From a virus (taxonomy: Duplodnaviria; Caudoviricetes), in the IMG/VR virus record IMGVR_UViG_3300031732_000201, positions 1 through 24,379 of that record: a stretch of 24,379 nucleotides of DNA; one strand, given 5' to 3'. The notes under the pieces were generated by a model, which searched no databases, was not told the DNA's origin, and saw only the letters and a program-made list of their open reading frames with translations. Position 1 is the stretch's first letter, and each line of letters begins with the position of its first letter. Positions 223 through 15,808 of the stretch are shown here, one piece after another. The position numbers and the translations under genes were made by a program.

Positions 223-464
223 CGACGTGGGTACTTCGGGCCGACGACGGCTACGGCTGCCACCTTGAGTCCGGGCTCCAGTACGTCTCCCTGTGTGGTC
301 GGACGTTCGATCCCGACGATGTCGATCGCGAGCGCTACGAAAACCCGTCGGATCATGATCACCCGCACGCCAGTCTCTGCTTTGACTGCCACACCGTGGG
401 GGTCGGCGGGGAGATCGATGAACTGCGCAGGGAGATCCACTTCGTCGGAGGTGCGTCGGCGTGA
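219..464 (+). CDS. Small Zn-binding protein (H...C...CxxC)
   Basis: GTG 219 preferred over 210: SD GGAGGTG at 206-212 and GTGA overlap; motifs GCHL, SLCGR, LCFDCH. Confidence 0.7.
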   Translation: MTTWVLRADDGYGCHLESGLQYVSLCGRTFDPDDVDRERYENPSDHDHPHASLCFDCHTVGVGGEIDELRREIHFVGGASA

Positions 465-3400
465 GAGACGAGGTTCCCGATGCGGTCGGCGAGGCCATCG
501 TCGACTGGACTAGCCAGAACGATCCTGTCTCCCGAGCAGAGTTTGACCGCCTCAACTCGGTGCTAATCCGGAGCGTCGGCGAGGCCGCTGAGCACGAAGA
601 GTACGGTCGCAACCAGCACCTCCGTCAGACTGATGCCGAGACAGCTGGGGTTTTCGCCTTCGACCACGACGTTGCGCTCGCCCGGCTGGACGACGACATT
701 GAGTACGTCGACCTCCACGGCTACGCCCTTGAGGAGGGATTTGTCCCGATCCTGGTCTGTCTGGCTGGCGACATAGACGACGTCGCCGATCGCCAGCATC
801 GCCTTTATCATCTCGTCGACAATACGTCACCCTGCGAGTGCAGGGCAGTGACCGATGGTGTTCCGCTCGAAGATTGCGTCTCTCGCTTCCTGGACCGCTA
901 CCCCGACGCGAGTATCCCGATGATCGCGGGCGGCGTCAATGCACCTCCGTCAGCGGTCGCGGAGGTCCTCGACGAGAATACCCCAGAATCGGGAGAACAT
1001 TCAAGTAGTAGAACCGGAGATCGCGTAAGCAGGCCGTTTTCGCGGTCGCGTCAGGACCGCCTTCGACGCTCGTGTAACACGGGGCAGTGGGAGGATGCTG
1101 ACTTCCCGACACCTGAGTCCGGCATTTTCCCACCGGGACAGTTCGAGCGCGTGCAGTGGATGGGACATCAGCAGAAGAAACCGTTCGCGCCGTGGGGCGA
1201 TCGCAATGCGCCGGCCCCGTGCTCGAAGAACCATCATCCCGAGACTGCGGCCGACTGCGAGTGCGATGCCCGATATAAGTGGGGCTACGACGGCCACTAT
1301 CTCGACGGAAAAACAGCCCAGATGGCCGAGGTCGATCCCCGACTCGATGGATTGGCGTACATCCAACTGCCCGACGACCCCTACGTCTACGTTGACGGCG
1401 ATGACGTTCGGGACCCGGAGACTGGCGACGTCCACCCGGCGCTCATCGCAATTCTCGAACATCTGGGGCTGACCTACGCCGACGTCTCCCAATCAGGAAA
1501 GGGTGTCCACGCGATCTACAAGGGTGACCTCCCCGACGGGGTCAAACAGGCCAGCTGGCGACTTGACGAGGATCCGTGGGAAAGCAACGAGGACCTCCCC
1601 TCCATCGAAGTGTATCCCGGCAAGCGCGTCTGTGTGATGACCGGCGCTCACGTCCCCGGGACGCCGACCGAGATCGCCGAGTGGAATGACGACGTCCTCG
1701 ACGCCCTCTTGGAAGCCAACGATCAGGTCGCGATCAACCAGCGAGATAACGCTGATCGCGACGATGTGTTGACGGCACGGGAGGACTACGATCTTGAGGA
1801 CTACGAGCCCGCAGCGACAGCGTCCTCGGAGACGACCGACGACATCCGAGACGTCTTCGCGGCGCTCGACCGGTTGGACGCTCGCCGAGTCGCCGAACGG
1901 ACGATCATCCACCGCTGGAACGACGACGCCTCGACGAGCGACGGCTACCGCGCGTTCTACCCCACCTGGGGGAAGACCTCGAACGGGACCGCGAACGTCG
2001 TCAACGACCAGATCTGGCAGGACACCGGCGACCTCGGCGGCTACGGCGGTCCGGTCGTCATGTCCCTTATTGACATTGGCGAGATGCGGCCCTCGAACGC
2101 CTCCCCCCGGAAGGCAACCGGCCGACTGTGGTTCCAGGGCATCGAGCACCTCCAGGACCTCGGCTTCGACATCCCGACCCTGGTGCCGCCGACACCCGAC
2201 TCCGAATCGGCGAACAGCGAGTGGACCGTTGAGGAGTGTGAGCCGCCGCCGCGGGACGCCGAGACGTTCGACCGCGAACAGCGCTGGGCCGAGCTGCAGG
2301 GCGAGCGCTTCGACGATGTCCTCGAGCACGACGGCATCGACCTTTGGAGTGACGAGGCGGGCGCCGGGAAGACCACGAATGCTCCCCTCGGCGCCCTCAA
2401 GCGCGACCAGGGCCACGCCATCTACTTCGACAAGCACGAGAAGGCCCGCGAGTTCACCAAGGACGACGCGATCCAGGACTTCGAGGGCGACGCCTTACAG
2501 GACGCCGAGTACTTCCACATGAAGGGCGGCGAGCAGAAGCGCCACGGCCACTGCATGGACGCCGATCACGCCGACGAGGACTGCCCCGAGCACGGCCACC
2601 CCTCGCAGTGCCCATCGATGTGCCCGATCTACGACCTCGACCCCGAGCACGAGACCCGGCAGGCCTACGAGGCCCTCGTCCGCGAGGTCGGCCCGAACAA
2701 GGCCCACCAGATCCTCGACCTCCACGAGGCGGGCGAATACGAGTGGCACGGCGAGGAGTGCGCCTGGCAGGCGCAGTACTCCGCGGTCGAGAGCGAGCCC
2801 TTCGTCGTCGGCGTCCACCCGTATGTCATCCAGAAGAGCGTCCGCTCTGGGCTGAACATCATCGACGAGACGCCCGACCTCCACTCTCGGGAGACGACGG
2901 CGGGCCCGACCGAGCTGACGCGCATCGCGAACACGCTCGAACGCATCGCCGATCTCCGGGCCCGCGACGACCCGGTCGCGTACACCGCTCGCGAACTCGC
3001 TCGGTTCACCCGCGACGTCGTCGACGTCATCGCCGACGTCGAGAACGCCGACGGCCTCAAGGATCTCACGGCGCCGACCATCACTTGGAACGCCTACGAG
3101 ACCTATGACGACGCCGCCGGACACTATCTCGAGCAGGAGCAGCCCGAGGGGGACTGGCAGCTCGCCGAGGCGCTCGCGAAGGCGAAGGTCGCCCACGGCG
3201 AGACCGTCCTCACCCGGATGCAGAACGACAACTGGGAGGGGACGCCCATCTCAATCGACGCGGTGCTCGCCGCCGCGGTCGAAGCCGGGCTCGACGAAGA
3301 GCCCGTCATGCAGGCGGTCGCCCTCTCCCCGATCATCGACAACTGCCCCTGGTGCCATGGGGAACTCAAGCACCACAATGGGGCCCGCTGCTGCGCGAGC

Positions 3401-4768
3401 GACGACTGCGACTGGCACGAGGCCGAGCATGCCCTCATCCACCAAGGCGCCGAGCCCGCCCGCGCCAGCGCGTGGTTCGCGACCGACCCATCCGACGCGA
3501 TCGTCGCGCTCCGCTACCGCGAGCTTCCCCTCACCTCCGAGCTCCCCGCCCCCGAGGACACGCTTGTCCTGGACGCGACCGCGACCCCTGATAAGGTCGC
3601 GACGCTGTTCGGCGTCGACCGCGATGAGGTCCGCGTCGCCGGCGACGATCCCCTCGAAATCCCGAACCTCCACACGACGCAGGTCCTCGACGGCCAGTAC
3701 CACGCCGGCACCATCCGCAGCGCCCTCGAGGACGACGGCTCGCTCGCGGGGCGCATCCAGCGCGCCATCGACACGGCGGCCGACGTCCACGAAAAGCCCC
3801 TCTACATTGTGAAGAGCGACCTCATCCCCGAGTTCGACTTCCCAGAGCGCGGCGAAGTCCTCCACTACCACGCGACCCGCGGCTTGAACCGGAACGACTG
3901 CGACGCCGTGATGTGCATCGGCGCGCCTCACCCCGACGTCGAGGACCTCAAGCGGGACGCCCAGCTGCTCGCGATGGCTCGCGACGATGTCGCCGCCGGC
4001 GGCGCCGAGCACTCGACGCGGCGCGGCGCCGAGAACCCTCCGGTCTACCGGAAGCTCCACTATGAGGACGACGCCGGCCGCGGGCGTGCCGTCCCGACGA
4101 AGCACTACACCGGCCTAGTCGGCACGCTCTTTCGGGAGTCCCGGGAGAAGGAACTCGTCCAGGCACTCCACCGCATCCGCCCCCTGATTGCCGACGAGGC
4201 GAAGCACGCCTACCTCCTGACGAACGTCCCGACCGAGATCCCCGTCGACGAGCCTGCGACGTTCGAGGACCTCGCCGATCCCCTTGAGGCGATTATCGAC
4301 GTCCCCTCCGGCGCGGTCGACCTGCTGAAGGCGACCCACGACGTCGTCGCCGGCGACGGCCCGAACGGGTTCCGCGCTGGGCAGCTCGTCGAGGAGTGCG
4401 ACGGCGTCGTCTCGAACAAGGTCGACGGCTACTACCGGCTCGCCCAGCTGTCCGGCCTGGACGTCTCGAAGCGCACGGTCTACAACTGGGTGAACGCGCT
4501 CAAGGAGGTCGGCCTCCTACGGCCCGAAGGATACGAACAGCACGCTGGGGTGTCCTACGCAGTCGATACTGCTACTTTGAAATCGGCCCTATCGGTGCTC
4601 TCCCATAACGGTGGCTTCAAAGTAGCCGCAGTCCGGCGCTTCCGCCGCATAATCGCCGATTCGACGTCTGGGTTCGACTGGCTGGAGTGGGCCCGCGACG
4701 CTTTCACCCTCCAGGGCAACGGGGAGATCGCCGATTCGCCTCCGGCCGGGGGTGGGTTGGGGACGTGA
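461..4768 (+). CDS. Replication protein: AEP-type primase-polymerase fused to SF2 (XPD/DinG-like) helicase and C-terminal wHTH
   Basis: AEP motifs YVDGDD, SQSGKGVH, IEVY-x-GKRVCVMTG; Walker A EAGAGKTT; Walker B NIIDETP; VLDATAT (III), TRGLN (V), QALHRIR (VI); C-terminal SGLDVSKRTVYNWVNALKEVGLL; SD GGAGGTG 447-453. Confidence 0.8.
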   Translation: MRDEVPDAVGEAIVDWTSQNDPVSRAEFDRLNSVLIRSVGEAAEHEEYGRNQHLRQTDAETAGVFAFDHDVALARLDDDIEYVDLHGYALEEGFVPILVCLAGDIDDVADRQHRLYHLVDNTSPCECRAVTDGVPLEDCVSRFLDRYPDASIPMIAGGVNAPPSAVAEVLDENTPESGEHSSSRTGDRVSRPFSRSRQDRLRRSCNTGQWEDADFPTPESGIFPPGQFERVQWMGHQQKKPFAPWGDRNAPAPCSKNHHPETAADCECDARYKWGYDGHYLDGKTAQMAEVDPRLDGLAYIQLPDDPYVYVDGDDVRDPETGDVHPALIAILEHLGLTYADVSQSGKGVHAIYKGDLPDGVKQASWRLDEDPWESNEDLPSIEVYPGKRVCVMTGAHVPGTPTEIAEWNDDVLDALLEANDQVAINQRDNADRDDVLTAREDYDLEDYEPAATASSETTDDIRDVFAALDRLDARRVAERTIIHRWNDDASTSDGYRAFYPTWGKTSNGTANVVNDQIWQDTGDLGGYGGPVVMSLIDIGEMRPSNASPRKATGRLWFQGIEHLQDLGFDIPTLVPPTPDSESANSEWTVEECEPPPRDAETFDREQRWAELQGERFDDVLEHDGIDLWSDEAGAGKTTNAPLGALKRDQGHAIYFDKHEKAREFTKDDAIQDFEGDALQDAEYFHMKGGEQKRHGHCMDADHADEDCPEHGHPSQCPSMCPIYDLDPEHETRQAYEALVREVGPNKAHQILDLHEAGEYEWHGEECAWQAQYSAVESEPFVVGVHPYVIQKSVRSGLNIIDETPDLHSRETTAGPTELTRIANTLERIADLRARDDPVAYTARELARFTRDVVDVIADVENADGLKDLTAPTITWNAYETYDDAAGHYLEQEQPEGDWQLAEALAKAKVAHGETVLTRMQNDNWEGTPISIDAVLAAAVEAGLDEEPVMQAVALSPIIDNCPWCHGELKHHNGARCCASDDCDWHEAEHALIHQGAEPARASAWFATDPSDAIVALRYRELPLTSELPAPEDTLVLDATATPDKVATLFGVDRDEVRVAGDDPLEIPNLHTTQVLDGQYHAGTIRSALEDDGSLAGRIQRAIDTAADVHEKPLYIVKSDLIPEFDFPERGEVLHYHATRGLNRNDCDAVMCIGAPHPDVEDLKRDAQLLAMARDDVAAGGAEHSTRRGAENPPVYRKLHYEDDAGRGRAVPTKHYTGLVGTLFRESREKELVQALHRIRPLIADEAKHAYLLTNVPTEIPVDEPATFEDLADPLEAIIDVPSGAVDLLKATHDVVAGDGPNGFRAGQLVEECDGVVSNKVDGYYRLAQLSGLDVSKRTVYNWVNALKEVGLLRPEGYEQHAGVSYAVDTATLKSALSVLSHNGGFKVAAVRRFRRIIADSTSGFDWLEWARDAFTLQGNGEIADSPPAGGGLGT

Positions 4769-6387: not shown

Positions 6388-6678
6388 ATGCCGACGTATC
6401 CCGACGATTGGAGCGAACGACGCGAGCGAGTCCTTCGTCGCGACGGCTACCGCTGTCGTCGGTGCGGCGCTCGCGGTCGACAGCACGGCGGCGAGGCGAC
6501 GCTTCACGTCCACCACACAAACGGCCGAGACCACGATATATCGAATCTCGTAACTCTCTGCGGGGACTGCCACGCCGACCAGCACGAAAACGACCACCTT
6601 CGCGACCGACGCTCGCGAAAATCGAAACGCGGACCGCGACGTATCCGGCGACCATCCCGGTCGAGGTCGAGACGATGA
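6388..6678 (+). CDS. HNH endonuclease (terminase-associated type)
   Basis: YPDDW..RRERVLRRDGYRCRRCG...LHVHH...SNLVTLCGDCHADQH. Confidence 0.9.
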   Translation: MPTYPDDWSERRERVLRRDGYRCRRCGARGRQHGGEATLHVHHTNGRDHDISNLVTLCGDCHADQHENDHLRDRRSRKSKRGPRRIRRPSRSRSRR

Positions 6679-10737: not shown

Positions 10738-11817
10738 ATGGCTGTAAAGACTACCGTACGCGGCGACCTGAAAGCAAACCTCGCGAGCGTCGCGACTCGC
10801 CTCGGTGGTCTCGACGACGCCGACCCGGACGCGGTCGTCGCGCTGGCGCGAGCGGAACCGTCGGCGAACCGCGACCGCGCGCCGCCGGGACCGTCGGGGA
10901 CGAAGGCGATACAGACCGACTATCAGGCGGACGTCTTCAAGCGGTTCCGCCGACTGAAGGGCCTGATTCGAGAGACTATCGCGAAGAACGACGCGCTTCG
11001 CCTCACCAGCGATAGTTCGCCGGCGTCGCCGACGGCGCCGACGCCGCTCGAAGCGAACGAAGATGACGCCGGCTGGTGGAAGGCGTACGTCGAGGAACGT
11101 CGCGCCGGCGTCGTACAGGCGTCGCCGAGTAACGACTTCGACTTCCCCGACGACGGCGATAAAGTCGACGCCTTCCTGCGGTGGCTTCAGGAAGCGGAAG
11201 ACGACGAAGTTCTCGAAGTCTTCGAGCGGACGAACGCCGGCGACGTCGCCCGGCGGAACGAATGGCAGAACGTGTACGTCCGACGGGCGTACTCGAAGGG
11301 CGCGAAGTACGGGAACGCGCGGCTTCGAGAGCAGGGTCTCGACGTCGACGCCGTCGACGCGCAAGCGCTGTTTAACAAGCCGATACACGCCGACGCCCTC
11401 GGGATTCTCCATACTCGCAACTTCCGCGAACTTCAGGGGATAACCGAGGCGATGGACCAGCAGATATCGCGGACACTCGCCGACGGCTTCTCGCAGGGGT
11501 TTAACTCCCGGAAGATGGCACGCGAGGTCAACGACCGCGTCGACAAAATCGGCTTAACGCGAGCGCGGACGCTAGCCCGGACCGAGACGATACACGCTCA
11601 CAGCGAGTCGACACTGAACCGGTACGAGCAGATAATGGGGCCGGACGCGGAAGTCACCGGTCGCGCCGAGTGGGAGACCGCCGGCGACTCGCGAGTCTGC
11701 CCGATCTGCGCCGGACTCGAAGGAACGACGCGCTCGCTCGACGACGCGCGCGGACTGATACCGATACACCCGAACTGCCGGTGTACGTGGCTACCGGTGG
11801 TGTCGTCCGCGTCGTAA
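10738..11817 (+). CDS. Head morphogenesis/minor head protein (SPP1 gp7 / Mu gpF-like)
   Basis: RARTLARTET, WETAGDSRVCPIC, PIHPNCRC. Confidence 0.93.
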   Translation: MAVKTTVRGDLKANLASVATRLGGLDDADPDAVVALARAEPSANRDRAPPGPSGTKAIQTDYQADVFKRFRRLKGLIRETIAKNDALRLTSDSSPASPTAPTPLEANEDDAGWWKAYVEERRAGVVQASPSNDFDFPDDGDKVDAFLRWLQEAEDDEVLEVFERTNAGDVARRNEWQNVYVRRAYSKGAKYGNARLREQGLDVDAVDAQALFNKPIHADALGILHTRNFRELQGITEAMDQQISRTLADGFSQGFNSRKMAREVNDRVDKIGLTRARTLARTETIHAHSESTLNRYEQIMGPDAEVTGRAEWETAGDSRVCPICAGLEGTTRSLDDARGLIPIHPNCRCTWLPVVSSAS

Positions 11818-12297
11818 CCGGCGACTCGACCTCGACGCCCGATGACACCGACCGCGCCGGCGCCGGTCGGTTGAGGGAACAAGCGCCGGTATCTCCCCGC
11901 CTCAACCCGCGAACCAGAATCGCTCGCCAACTCCCGAGGTGGTACTCGGTCAACGCCGCCGTTCCACCGCCGCAACGTCGGCGACGTGGAACGTCTCGGC
12001 GGCGTTCGAGCGGTCGGCGGGAGTTGGAAGCGCAAACCCCACCGCTCCCGACCCCTTCGAGGTATAGTTCGACGCGGAGAACAACGCGGTCCGCGACACG
12101 AAGGCGCAACATCTCGACGGCTTTCCGTACCTTCTGGTGCCGGAAGCCAGTACGTCGAGGCGACCGGGTTCGAGTCCCGGCGCGGACGTCCGCCGCGCCC
12201 TCGAGGGTTCAAGTTTCTCATCCGGCGTGGCACTCCCGATGACCGACGGCGTAACCCGCCGCCGTTTGCGAGGGTCGAGCGGGTTCGCGACGCGACT
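11818..12297 (+). ncRNA. Candidate large structured RNA / structured intercistronic leader (two K-turns, long hairpin, tRNA-like domain)
   Basis: 480-nt gap with many manually identified helices, several containing + strand G-U pairs; ends bracketed by complementary segments. Confidence 0.65.
12089..12188 (+). ncRNA. tRNA-like element (not a canonical tRNA)
   Basis: Acceptor GTCCGCG/CGCGGAC; T-arm CCGGG-TTCGAGT-CCCGG; 4-nt variable linker; extended stem CTCGACG/CGTCGAG in place of the anticodon arm; no D-stem. Confidence 0.7.
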
Positions 12298-14181
12298 ATG
12301 AACGCGAAACCAGAAGCGGTCCGGTACCTCGACGTCGACGGTAGCACTCGGCGGTTCGCTACCAACGACGGCGATTACTACGGGACCGTCACGATACAGG
12401 TCGAACCCGACCCCGGAGCGGTCGAGGTTCGAGAGCTCCGGGGCAAGAAGCATCTCGTCGCCCCGGTGGTCGCGGTCGCGGAAGGTATCTTAAATGGCGG
12501 CTTCCTCCCGTTCAGGGAGATAGCGAAGTCCGCCCCCGGCTGGAACGGCGTTCCGGTCACGGTCAACCACCCGGAAGACGACGACGGGAACTTCGTTCCG
12601 GCGAATCAACCGACGACGCTCGAACGTTACCAAATCGGGCAGTTACTGAACATCGAGGCGAATCAGGAGAAACAGGCCCTTACGGGCGAACTCTGGATAA
12701 ACCTCGATGAAATCAAGTGGCTGGTCGAGAACGCCGACCGCCTCGGCGAACTCGCGAAACTCGCGGTCGAGAAGATACGAGACGGCGACCCTCTCGAAGT
12801 CTCGACCGGGTACTGGCACGGCGAGGTACAGGACTCGGGCCGGTTCGACGGCGAGCAGTACGACCGGACGCAGGTCGATCTGCTACCGGACCACCTCGCC
12901 GTGCTTCCGAACGCCGAAGGCGCCTGTAACTGGGAAGGCGACTCGACGACCGTTGGGTGCGGCGCACCGCGAACGAACGCGACGCCCGCCCGGAACGTCG
13001 TCGGCGTCGGCGCTGGCGCGTTCGCCGCGAACTCGACGACCGTTCGAGCGGCGTTCGAGACCGGTATCGACACGGCGTTGATACCGGACTCGCTCGACGC
13101 GACCGACGTCGTCGAGGCGAACCTGCTCGACTCGGCGCGACCCCCCGAGTATTCGGGGACATCGTCGAGCGAGTGGTCGCGACCGTCGCTGGCGGACTTC
13201 GCCGACGCGAACGGTTGGGACGACGTCGATAGCGTCGACGACCTGACCGGCGACCAGCGAACGACGCTCGCGATGCACTCGCTACTCGGCGACGCCGACG
13301 CCGATACGTTCGTCGACGCTACGTTTTTCCCCGTGGTCTCGGCGAGCGGCGACCTGAACGAAAACGCGCTCGACGCGGTCGTCTCGGGTCGCGGCGCGCA
13401 GGCTGACGTCAGCGAGTCGCAGCTCGAAAGCGCTCGCGGCGTCGCCCGGTCGCTACTCGAAGACGAGTTCGACCGAGACCTCGACGACAACGTCGACGGC
13501 TGGCGAGCGACGGCGGCAAACGCCTTCCTTCGGACGCTCGGCATCGACGCCGACGTCCGCTCGCTCGCCGACGCCGACGCCGGACCGGTCGGCGCGAGAG
13601 ATACCGACGCGACCGAGGTATCGTACGCCGTTCACGCGGCGAACTGTAACTGCGGTGGCTGTACCCACGAACCTATGGGAAGCAACGACCCGAACGACCG
13701 ACTCGAACGCCTCGCGAACTCGACCGAGTTCACGGTCGAGGAACTGCGCGAGATGGACGACGACGTCGTCGACAAGATCGACGAATCGCTCAAACAGAAC
13801 AAAGACGCGGACGGCGGTGACGGCGGCGACGGCGGTAGCGGTACCGACGACGACCCAACGCCTGACGCCGTACAGGAGCTCGAACAGAAGATCGACGCGC
13901 TCGAAGACCGTCTCGACGAGCAGAACGAAAACCGTCGCGACGAACTCGTCGAGGCAATCACGTCGCAGACGCGGATGGACGAAGACGACCTCGACGATAT
14001 CGGCGTTCTCGACGATGTCGAAGCGCTCGAACGCGTCGCCGAGAAGTTCGGCGCGCAGGTCGAGACCGTTCCGAACTACGGCGGCCGCGCCGCCGGTACC
14101 AACGAAAGCGACCCGGACGACCTCGAGGTCGAGGTCGGCGGGTACTTCCACGGTCAGGAAGACGAAGGGAGCGCTGACTGA
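12298..14181 (+). CDS. Prohead protease (DUF2213-like) fused to a middle domain and acidic coiled-coil scaffold
   Basis: WNGVPVTVNHP, EVSTGY, PDHLAVL...GAC; C-terminal coiled coil; ATG 12298 preferred because the 11986 extension is Arg-rich and overlaps structured RNA. Confidence 0.85.
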   Translation: MNAKPEAVRYLDVDGSTRRFATNDGDYYGTVTIQVEPDPGAVEVRELRGKKHLVAPVVAVAEGILNGGFLPFREIAKSAPGWNGVPVTVNHPEDDDGNFVPANQPTTLERYQIGQLLNIEANQEKQALTGELWINLDEIKWLVENADRLGELAKLAVEKIRDGDPLEVSTGYWHGEVQDSGRFDGEQYDRTQVDLLPDHLAVLPNAEGACNWEGDSTTVGCGAPRTNATPARNVVGVGAGAFAANSTTVRAAFETGIDTALIPDSLDATDVVEANLLDSARPPEYSGTSSSEWSRPSLADFADANGWDDVDSVDDLTGDQRTTLAMHSLLGDADADTFVDATFFPVVSASGDLNENALDAVVSGRGAQADVSESQLESARGVARSLLEDEFDRDLDDNVDGWRATAANAFLRTLGIDADVRSLADADAGPVGARDTDATEVSYAVHAANCNCGGCTHEPMGSNDPNDRLERLANSTEFTVEELREMDDDVVDKIDESLKQNKDADGGDGGDGGSGTDDDPTPDAVQELEQKIDALEDRLDEQNENRRDELVEAITSQTRMDEDDLDDIGVLDDVEALERVAEKFGAQVETVPNYGGRAAGTNESDPDDLEVEVGGYFHGQEDEGSAD

Positions 14182-14695: not shown

Positions 14696-15808
14696 ATGTC
14701 TGCAATCGAAGTGATGGACGAAGGCGGCGTCGACTCCGCCGATAGTCTCTCGGGCGGTAGTGGTATCGCGTACCAGAAACTCGTCGCGCACAGCCAACTG
14801 CGGCTGGCGCGGTATCGGGACGACGAAGAACTCGAACGACAGGCGAAGCAGACGCTCGCCGCGTACCAGAAGCAGGTGTTCAACCGAGGTCTCACCGGGA
14901 ACGACCAACTTCGGAAGGACGAATGGCGGCGGATGAACGACGTCCTGACCGCCGTCGCTCGCGACAACACCATCGGTATCGACACGCTTCGAGACCGTGG
15001 TATCGAAGTGCCGCTCGACCTCGGCGTGACCCGCTTCGAGTGGGGAGACGTCGACCAGTTCGGCGATGCCGAGGTCGACATGGCGGCGACGACCGGCGGC
15101 GGCGAAGACACGCTGAACTACACGAACAACGGCATCCCGCTCCCCATCGTTCACAAGTCGTTCAAAGTGAACTTGCGGAAACTCCGATCTTCGCGGAACC
15201 GAGGCCAGCCCATCGACACCGCCGGCGTCGAGGCGGCGACGGTCGCGGTCGCGCGAAAACTCGAAGACATCCTGTTCGGCGGGAACAGCATCACCGTCGA
15301 AGGCGACTCGGTCGCCGGGATGACGGACTTCACCGACCGCGAAACGGTGTCGGGGAACGCGACGTGGGACGGGGCGAGCGCTGACAACATGATCGACGAC
15401 GTGATGAGTACGGTCGAAGCGCTCGAAGACGCTCGAGCGTTCCCCGGTCAGTCCGGGTACGACTTCTTCATCCACCGCGGCAACTATCAGGAGGTCCGGG
15501 CGAAGAACGCCGGGACGGACGACAAGCGCGGCGTTCTGGAACTCCTGCGCGACCGGCTGGAACAGGAGGCAGATCTGCCGAACTCCATCCGGTTCTTCCC
15601 GTCCGACCGACTCAGCGACGGGAACGCGGTGATGGTGAAGCCGACCGAGCGGCACGTCCAGATGCCGACCGCCGCCGACATCCAGACCGTCCAGTGGGAG
15701 TCGATGGGCGGGATGGTCCAGCACTGGAAGGTGATGGGTAGCGTGATGCCGGCGCTTCGGTCCGACCAGAGCGGGAACAGCGGCGTCGCGCACCTGTCCG
15801 GTCTCTGA
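14696..15808 (+). CDS. Major capsid protein (HK97 fold, Linocin-M18/encapsulin-like branch)
   Basis: Position; 370 aa; LRKDEW, PLPIVHKSFKVNLRKL, VARKLEDILFGG, KVMGSVMPALRSD..GNSGVAH. Confidence 0.88.
   Translation: MSAIEVMDEGGVDSADSLSGGSGIAYQKLVAHSQLRLARYRDDEELERQAKQTLAAYQKQVFNRGLTGNDQLRKDEWRRMNDVLTAVARDNTIGIDTLRDRGIEVPLDLGVTRFEWGDVDQFGDAEVDMAATTGGGEDTLNYTNNGIPLPIVHKSFKVNLRKLRSSRNRGQPIDTAGVEAATVAVARKLEDILFGGNSITVEGDSVAGMTDFTDRETVSGNATWDGASADNMIDDVMSTVEALEDARAFPGQSGYDFFIHRGNYQEVRAKNAGTDDKRGVLELLRDRLEQEADLPNSIRFFPSDRLSDGNAVMVKPTERHVQMPTAADIQTVQWESMGGMVQHWKVMGSVMPALRSDQSGNSGVAHLSGL

Follow-up and report, generated by a model that had tools for sequence, protein, structure and literature searches.

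A tRNA-like domain without an anticodon lies at 12089..12188 on the plus strand of the window, i.e. of the whole 24,379-nt stretch of DNA analysed here, a complete linear virus record (24.4 kb) that represents ∼43% of the genome by completeness estimate. Identified by its fold, by comparison with shuffled sequences, by relatives and by covariation, the element is a real feature with a conserved fold. It is apparently an undescribed conserved RNA, part of a kink-turn-flanked module common to two halovirus families. With a probability of roughly 55% we take it to be a t-element, at which RNase P and tRNase Z would punctuate the late transcript while the new RNA ends are protected.

Family matches among the 24 ORFs scanned gave the gene order: primase-like gene, terL (7019), portal (8340), MuF (10738-11817), DUF2213 protease, major capsid (14696), neck and tape measure genes; all family-matched ORFs are on the plus strand. 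The MuF/SPP1 gp7 head-morphogenesis gene (10738..11817; PF04233, E = 7.7e-16; phrog_758, E = 7.5e-37) is the final gene of the terL-portal-MuF block and the upstream neighbour of the element. The DUF2213 prohead protease/scaffold gene (12298..14181; PF09979, with phrog_12864 and phrog_530, ‘head maturation protease’) opens the protease-stabiliser-major capsid block. Downstream in the same gene run is the major capsid protein gene (14696..15808; phrog_264 and phrog_771), whose product is 36% identical to Mcp of Halorubrum phage Hardycor1, the closest cultured relative (protease 42%, capsid 36% identity). The region is present in five sequencing runs, all of them halite metagenomes, from two studies; therefore, we infer an archaeal host for this tailed halovirus. 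DNA contigs of the region contained no variant in three of the runs and an L004-type virus in a fourth.

The start of the protease gene is ATG 12298 and not GTG 11986, as homologues begin at or after the Met encoded there; a gap of 480 nt thus separates the MuF stop from the true protease start, and the tRNA-like element is inside this gap. A 731-aa ORF running from GTG 11986 over the element was rejected: its homologues start at the later Met, and loci L004 and L010 have stops (in L004 in-frame) 17 and 19 codons, respectively, before the start.

Several observations concern the proteins themselves. At 461-4768 the window encodes a 1435-aa protein with a primase-like segment (PHROG matches at residues 264-446) and no Pfam match elsewhere. 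The protease (12298-14181) has an insert of ∼100 aa found in some homologues only; its acidic C-terminal part begins at a conserved internal Met and resembles the nested scaffold described for HFTV1 gp17. In the group of L006, L007 and L008 the protease gene has an apparent GTG start (L007:4025-4027).

An initial description of the element from the letters alone (the sequence-only reading) was accurate in most structural details. The acceptor stem, GTCCGCG (12089-95) with CGCGGAC (12181-87), consists of seven Watson-Crick pairs; the T-arm (12164-80) is perfect and G is present at the discriminator position, 12188. The 17 nt at 12096-112 with GG at 12103-04, the long arm at 12113-59 and GCGA at 12160-63 are also as that reading gave them. 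Its claim that a D-stem is absent holds for the window copy, in which two of four pairs are left next to two A.C mismatches, but not for L004, L005, L007 and L010, which have a D-stem; the closest relative has G at both mismatched positions. We delimit a short D-arm at 12097-108, containing the GG, and a long variable arm at 12110/13-12159/62. The GCGA that was described as a 4-nt linker is there, but part of it can pair with 12110-12112, leaving a connector of 1-2 nt to the T-arm.

The long arm folds into 6 bp, a 5-nt bulge, 7 bp, a C.C, 5 bp and a UUCU tetraloop. An isolated 100-mer folds into acceptor, long arm and T-hairpin (−49.7 kcal/mol; tRNA geometry, if forced, costs 0.1); folded within 121 nt of context, the sequence reaches a z-score of only −1.9 with a mispaired acceptor. 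When the window was dinucleotide-shuffled 300 times, a 7-bp acceptor stacked on a T-arm appeared 0.02 times per window if G-U pairs were permitted and never (0/300) with Watson-Crick pairs throughout. ARAGORN, proposed as a check in the sequence-only reading, detected no gene at the element with default settings; relaxed thresholds produced 31-94 spurious calls in the window and were uninformative. No Rfam family, RF00005 (tRNA) included, matched the element at E ≤ 5.

Alignment of the protease retrieved 14 viral and two metagenome loci. The acceptor/T-arm element is located just 5′ of the protease gene at seven of the viral loci (61-93% protease identity) and at both metagenome loci; the other seven viral loci (38-42% identity) and Hardycor1 have no element before this gene. 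The carriers collapse to six distinct sequences, the window included, in five lineages, two of them close. Searches with capsid and portal added no carrier. In every carrier the element is in sense orientation and 70-127 nt ahead of the protease start. A covariance model was built from all six sequences, so that their scores of 61-90 bits are given by construction; everything else in 508 kb scored 29 bits or less. Each of the four full records (G001-G004) has a single copy, and the next best match there (29 bits) is to the antisense strand of the portal gene; in Hardycor1 the model detected no copy.

Among GTDB genome contigs, no relative was found by protease (0/387 candidate stretches) or portal (0/128) alignments, nor was any relative found among plasmids. 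A blastn search of the intergenic region against phage records returned five short chance matches. The exact T-arm/acceptor pattern matched only an ordinary phage tRNA (L002). A gapped pattern matched at 66 viral loci, of which only the known members (L006 plus L025, L037, L048, L066 and L068) had head genes; the remaining loci were tRNAs, tmRNAs or unrelated. The L002 match lies in an unrelated 108-kb phage contig with three adjacent genes (L002:1838-2072) that ARAGORN calls tRNA-Leu (CAG, GAG, CAA), yet they are 73-76 nt long.

The alignment used for covariation was fitted to its own model and contains few related lineages, which inflates the following figures: 12 of the 25 pairs changed on both sides and 86.6% of the cells pair, compared with 36-46% paired in slid controls; none of 500 shuffles reached any of five measures, a count that is not a probability. 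Changes between copies include G-U-preserving ones. Identity of the window copy to L004 is 88% in the element versus 94-95% at third codon positions, i.e. not above background; therefore, this pair supports the structure solely through the nature of the changes.

The canonical features of tRNA (7-bp acceptor, T-arm, D-loop G18/G19) are present except for pairs lost in L009, where mismatches at 7:66 and 49:65 leave six of seven acceptor pairs and four of five T-stem pairs and where the D-arm is irregular. Unconstrained folding of L004, L005, L007 and L010 yielded a cloverleaf in which a 4-bp D-stem closes a 4-nt loop, (C/A)AGG. Invariant in all six copies are C3:G70, the D-loop GG, G53-C61 and the TTC.A.T T-loop; G at +1 and U at 74 occur in five of six, and no CCA is encoded. 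Other parts are free. The length of the element varies from 72 to 117 nt (106 in L009), that of the third arm from 18 to ∼65 nt with loops UUCU, AGCU, CGAU, 8-nt or branched, and the discriminator differs among the six copies (G, A, A, G, A, U).

The element is embedded in a wider module of ∼350-440 nt, flanked by kink-turns, which was absent from the sequence-only reading; as a whole, the interpretation offered there is partly supported. Hairpins with a 3-nt bulge, tandem G.A and A.G pairs, and canonical and non-canonical helices are found at 11838..11877 and 12235..12274, both on the plus strand and both predicted L7Ae sites. Kink-turn 1 (CCC-GAU-GA-C ... U-GA-GGG) is 20 nt past the MuF stop and 251 nt before the acceptor stem; it is present in five of six copies at −195 to −259 relative to the element (with A.A at the second sheared pair in L007 and L009), and in L010 a TATA box is found in its place. 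Kink-turn 2, located in the protease leader, is present in all six copies, five found by scan and that of L007 (U.G at −1) by hand; its canonical and non-canonical helices vary in sequence while pairing is kept. The strict pattern occurs twice in the window versus 0.01 expected by chance. Since a loose scan was unspecific and incomplete (seven plus-strand and two minus-strand matches in the window; kink-turn 1 missed in three copies), we count as evidence only strict-motif matches and conserved position. 3b=C and -1b:-1n=C:G hold for the two kink-turns of the window; the available text of PMC6298567 gives these as rules for folding without protein. We infer from sequence that both would adopt the kinked fold and bind L7Ae. 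The 20-codon ORF at 12239-12301 was rejected, as its ATG start coincides with the GAU-G of kink-turn 2, a site that reads GUC or GAC in three lineages. A hammerhead core has, by consensus, GAAA following the stem; a hammerhead reading of CCGAUGA was rejected, as no GAAA follows the stem here.

Between kink-turn 1 and the acceptor is a structured spacer (11878..12088, plus strand) with a UCUCCCC tract (11892-98), a CGCUCGC motif (11921-27) and a long hairpin (11952-12006). Its identity is 82% to L004 and 50-60% between lineages, and no single consensus fold could be aligned. Nevertheless, 11 of 15 pairs within the family have local similarity at z 2.5-8.8, CGCTCGC is present in six of eight lineages, and shared 7-mers number seven versus 1.4 in shuffled sequences (maximum five). 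Two further hairpins recur: one with G(G/A)CAA, at −75 to −85, in L005, L007, L009, L010 and phiH1, and one resembling a T-loop, at −36 to −51, in L005, L009, L010 and phiH1; by strict census the window, L004 and ChaoS9 have neither. On the other side of the element, a 7-8-bp hairpin follows 2-3 nt after the discriminator in five of six copies. In the window this trailer hairpin (12192..12231, plus strand) begins 3 nt past the predicted tRNase Z site, and its tip is a second T-arm-like stem-loop (12203-12219, TTCAAGT loop), fully paired in the window and L004 despite three substitutions; the stem-loop is not seen in other lineages and might alternatively be a TATA-like element. Folding of the whole unit gave z-scores of −1.3 to −4.4 in all six cases tested. 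In L009 (3285-3560) and L010 (2425-3620) additional DNA with HNH-like ORFs (assigned by eye) lies between MuF and the RNA module; the L010 insert has a small membrane-protein-like gene and then the TATA box.

A similar layout exists in unrelated viruses. A relaxed scan of 328 kb (0.05 chance matches per 100 kb) flagged an anticodon-less mimic in phiH1; the other matches were a tRNA-like RNA of HFTV1, between portal and protease genes, and ordinary tRNAs in HATV-3 and HF2. No dispersed mini t-elements were seen in the genomes scanned. Five more matches were recorded in L134, L136 and L137, and one overlapping match in L128. The myoviruses phiH1, phiCh1 and ChaoS9, unrelated to the virus of the window, have an upstream kink-turn and a tRNA mimic before late genes: the phiH1 mimic (55043-55118) has counterparts in phiCh1 and ChaoS9, and kink-turn 1 is at −253 in phiH1, −227 in phiCh1 and −465 in ChaoS9. 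A pattern of the phiH1 element matched five IMG/VR loci; kink-turn 1 is at −253 in L143 and L145, and the flank of L144 is too short. Within 315,830 bases of halovirus DNA we counted 11 occurrences of the CCC-RAT-GA-C strand; eight of these sites have a partner strand and hairpin, all eight flanking a tRNA mimic, and the remaining three are without a partner. Local alignment of L009 with phiH1 gave z 4.1; ChaoS9 had no upstream similarity. Judged from sequence, common ancestry of the module in both virus groups is likely; it is not proven, because the phiH1 mimic matches the covariance model (22 bits) through acceptor and T-arm only.

Annotation at these sites is uneven. In phiH1 (54790-55118; L127:6791-7119) the hypothetical ORF PhiH1_455 starts at an ATG inside the kink-turn motif and overlaps the mimic, and PhiCh1_435 (L140:∼500-800) overlaps the mimic of phiCh1; both ORFs may be mis-annotated RNA. 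In ChaoS9 (L139:∼235-330) two nested kink-turn-like CC-GAU-GA-C strands open a 515-nt gene-free stretch before an annotated tRNA-Arg, an element described in the accessible part of PMC6471424 as a tRNA-Arg of unclear function; in that of the phiH1 genome paper (PMC6210493) the word tRNA is absent. The HFTV1 RNA (L125:6434-6552) has a structured insert of ∼41 nt between the D-arm and an anticodon-like arm, and ARAGORN with introns allowed reports it as tRNA-Thr. HATV-3 has an unannotated tRNA two genes past the capsid gene (L126:8049-8121; ARAGORN tRNA-Gln(TTG)). The ‘aberrant tRNA-Pro’ of HF2 (L120:12631-12702; AF222060 74630-74701) is annotated on the plus strand, while ARAGORN places tRNA-Pro(TGG) on the opposite, minus strand, in the same orientation as the late genes and 17 nt ahead of terL; a strand error may underlie the aberrant structure that was reported.

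RNase P and tRNase Z recognise the 12-bp acceptor/T helix and the D/T elbow. We favour punctuation because the conserved parts of the element are those that both nucleases read and the free parts are those that ribosomes or synthetases read, and because covariation, fixed operon position, single copy and structured flanks point in the same direction. A t-element has an acceptor/T fold without decoding, beside an RNA whose end it sets; the viral element has such a fold and lies just ahead of the protease gene. The late transcript would run through the MuF-protease gap, host RNase P would cut at the 5′ edge (12088/89) and tRNase Z after 12188 (12188/89). The expected products are a terL-portal-MuF RNA with a structured tail, a mimic of ∼100 nt and a protease-capsid mRNA whose leader, 109 nt long, begins with hairpin and kink-turn; the new RNA ends would be shielded by the hairpins on either side and by kink-turns predicted to bind L7Ae. 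The presumed purpose is a stable 5′ end for the high-copy protease/capsid message, which would be kept separate from the low-copy message for terminase, portal and MuF. In vivo cutting of t-elements by RNase P and tRNase Z is documented for Haloferax in the accessible text of PMC4326828.

An A/T hexamer precedes the acceptor in only two of ten elements, at unequal spacing, and the absence of a conserved promoter fits release from a read-through transcript; accordingly, TATAGT at −26 was rejected as an own promoter of the window copy. A sigma-70 scan gave no match, this consensus not being applicable here. The setting in a late gene run supports punctuation as well, since tRNAs or mimics lie inside late gene runs of HF2 (before terL), HFTV1, HATV-3 and phiH1. 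As the kink-turns follow the protein-free folding rules, end protection fits better than an L7Ae on/off switch of the l7ae leader type.

Several points count against punctuation. The seven viral loci at 38-42% protease identity and Hardycor1 evidently manage without the element, and only six distinct sequences in five lineages have it. The damaged D-stem of the window and the mismatches of L009 could reflect relaxed selection. A pure cut signal would leave unexplained that ∼250 nt of structured RNA and a 5′ kink-turn accompany the mimic into the different gene context of phiH1-like viruses, and in L010 a TATA box replaces kink-turn 1. The tRNA of HFTV1, probably in the same slot, co-sediments with ribosomes, which points to a role in trans.

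The strongest competitor, to which we give about half the weight of punctuation, is an independent viral RNA of ∼270-370 nt (540 in ChaoS9) extending from kink-turn 1 to the discriminator (11838-12188). Either the tRNA-like domain would set its 3′ end (tRNase Z, possibly CCA) or RNase P would free the upstream part as in MALAT1/mascRNA, and the RNA would work as an L7Ae ribonucleoprotein in late infection or head assembly; the tRNase Z step is shared with punctuation. Such an RNA would account for the recurrence of the kink-turn, 195-259 nt ahead of the mimic, in two virus families that are unrelated and differ in gene context, for a ∼250-nt spacer conserved together with the mimic and for the G(G/A)CAA and T-loop-like hairpins common to several relatives and phiH1. 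The L009-phiH1 similarity, the whole-unit folding scores and the TATA box at the 5′ edge of L010 agree with it, as does the title, quoted in PMC4284463, that calls phiCh1 a phage ‘containing DNA and RNA’. However, the middle part (50-60% identity) has no alignable common secondary structure, the window and L004 lack both hairpins, ChaoS9 lacks the upstream similarity, most copies have no promoter ahead of kink-turn 1, kink-turn 2 lies outside the unit, and the phiH1 mimic scores low with the covariance model, through acceptor and T-arm only.

A bolder version of this idea is slightly less probable still. Unrelated haloarchaeal tailed viruses would share an undescribed RNA of ∼350 nt with an L7Ae kink-turn cap and a tRNA-mimic tail, cut from the late transcript and acting as an RNP in head assembly or packaged, possibly among the RNAs reported for phiCh1 particles. 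If so, it would be an archaeal-virus counterpart of the MALAT1/mascRNA design.

It is rather improbable that the excised ∼100-nt mimic has a function in trans, either as a decoy for defence enzymes that target tRNA (one of two options in the sequence-only reading, the other being a processing signal) or as a modulator binding ribosomes or synthetases. The mimic would be released if both cuts happen, and release of a mimic has a precedent in mascRNA (PMC11693755, as far as its accessible text goes). The viral tRNA of HFTV1, according to the accessible part of bioRxiv 10.64898/2026.09.13.751334, accumulates late and co-sediments with 30S and polysomes with no codon-usage rationale. On the other hand, anticodon nucleases and synthetases would find no constant anticodon loop, discriminator or arm length to read: the part that anticodon nucleases recognise is the non-conserved one, which leaves the decoy poorly supported. 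Furthermore, the element is single copy without its own promoter, and its position is late while defence would act early.

We consider a decaying or intron-containing tRNA gene, or an attP remnant, very improbable and already largely refuted. ChaoS9 has an annotated tRNA-Arg in the homologous slot (42 bits with the Rfam tRNA model), ARAGORN at a relaxed threshold reports tRNA-Arg for L005 and L009, the window copy has lost D-stem pairs and G002-G004 are classed as proviruses. Nevertheless, the window copy has no strict bulge-helix-bulge; matches occur in two of six copies at unshared places, and no single excision, the test that also covered relaxed bulge-helix-loop forms, produces a canonical anticodon arm in any of the six. 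The changes are compensatory, not random as in decay; both acceptor strands are present and covary, and the element is flanked by MuF and protease genes and not by one for an integrase. With loops and discriminators varying between copies as well, the view that the element is not a decoding tRNA is supported.

Equally improbable is an action of the inverted repeats at the level of DNA or transcription (late promoter, terminator, packaging or protein-binding site) with an incidental tRNA shape: the pyrimidine tracts and repeated motifs of the region (UCUCCCC, AUCGCUCG, ACCCCUACC) and TATAGT at −26 in the window copy would fit it, but the TATA-like hexamer is not conserved, and G-U-preserving changes, a strand-specific T-loop, the D-loop GG and sheared G.A motifs are signatures of RNA.

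The element may bear on how archaeal viruses make short RNAs from very long late transcripts and set the ratio of packaging to capsid protein. In HF2, 35-kb units contrast with Northern species of 0.5-9 kb, and processing in phiH1 is cited (PMC8707807, accessible text). A conserved tRNA mimic between kink-turns, where packaging and capsid genes meet, would offer a concrete mechanism via two host enzymes and L7Ae, testable now in cultured phiH1, phiCh1 and ChaoS9, which have the same layout. If the proposal is true, an annotated ‘tRNA-Arg’ and two hypothetical ORFs will have to be reinterpreted. By extension, unusual ‘tRNAs’ in viral late operons may be punctuation, not decoders. We found no description of the element family or of a viral kink-turn/tRNA-mimic module in Rfam or in the open-access literature, subscription journals being outside this scope.

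Among the closest known systems is the t-element upstream of 5S rRNA in Haloferax volcanii (Hoelzle et al. 2008/2012), a tRNA-like substrate of RNase P and tRNase Z, compared here by its description in the accessible text of PMC4326828. Both are tRNA-like without a decoding role, occur in a haloarchaeal cell and lie directly 5′ of another RNA; the viral element differs in its protein-coding late operon, long variable third arm, short D-arm and kink-turn flanks. Plant mitochondrial t-elements (PMC1920247, accessible part) are likewise tRNA-like cis signals at mRNA 5′ or 3′ ends with proposed RNase Z/RNase P processing, but they are organelle remnants and not a conserved viral family with covariation.

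The ChaoS9, phiH1 and phiCh1 elements share with ours a third arm that varies in length and loop and a mimic that ends a gene-free stretch, opened by the same kink-turn, before late genes; they differ in an 8-nt D-arm loop and a leader of ∼22 nt to a membrane-protein gene, and no kink-turn 2 was found in the 70 nt inspected. The HFTV1 tRNA-Thr (6434-6552) is the only tRNA-like match in that genome and lies between portal and protease genes; we take it to be the viral tRNA of bioRxiv 10.64898/2026.09.13.751334. Unlike our element, it has a canonical D-arm and a proposed anticodon, and HFTV1 has no CCC-RAT-GA-C kink-turn in its genome and no covariance-model match at E ≤ 3.

The viral kink-turns resemble the L7Ae-bound kink-turns of archaeal mRNA leaders in GAU bulge, tandem G.A/A.G pairs and location in an untranslated leader, and differ from l7ae switches in following the protein-free rules (3b=C, -1 C:G) and in lying 20-70 nt from the start codon (accessible parts of PMC5539422 and PMC6298567). 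The open-access literature searched contained no L7Ae-type mRNA-leader kink-turn from a virus.

The tRNA-like domain of tmRNA and YrlA also combine acceptor and T arms without an anticodon loop. G3.U70 is the alanine determinant of tmRNA, and Ro60 is linked to YrlA. The likeness to tmRNA drawn in the sequence-only reading proved weak, as all six copies have C3:G70, not G3.U70, and the family has a D-stem; no tag reading frame or mRNA-like domain was found (ARAGORN and Rfam negative; third arm only 18-65 nt). YrlA had no Rfam match, and there was no Ro60/Rsr (TROVE) among the 24 ORFs scanned in this 43% complete contig.

A close structural parallel is with mascRNA/menRNA of MALAT1/NEAT1 (PMC11693755, accessible text), which have a 7-bp acceptor on the T-arm, a small D stem-loop with two conserved G, a longer anticodon-equivalent stem without anticodon, few linkers and structured RNA upstream. 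A small D stem-loop of this type (4-bp stem, 4-nt loop) is present in four of six copies, reduced to 2 bp in the window and irregular in L009. In contrast to mascRNA/menRNA, the element comes from an archaeal virus, shows no sequence homology to them (no Rfam match), has an arm of up to ∼65 nt, sometimes branched, and has protein-coding neighbours and kink-turns instead of the known triple helix. Since relatives fold a D-stem of 4 bp that closes a 4-nt loop, the fold is mascRNA/t-element-like and not tmRNA-like; the element is outside the tRNA, tmRNA, YrlA and mascRNA families and most likely works in the manner of a t-element or mascRNA.
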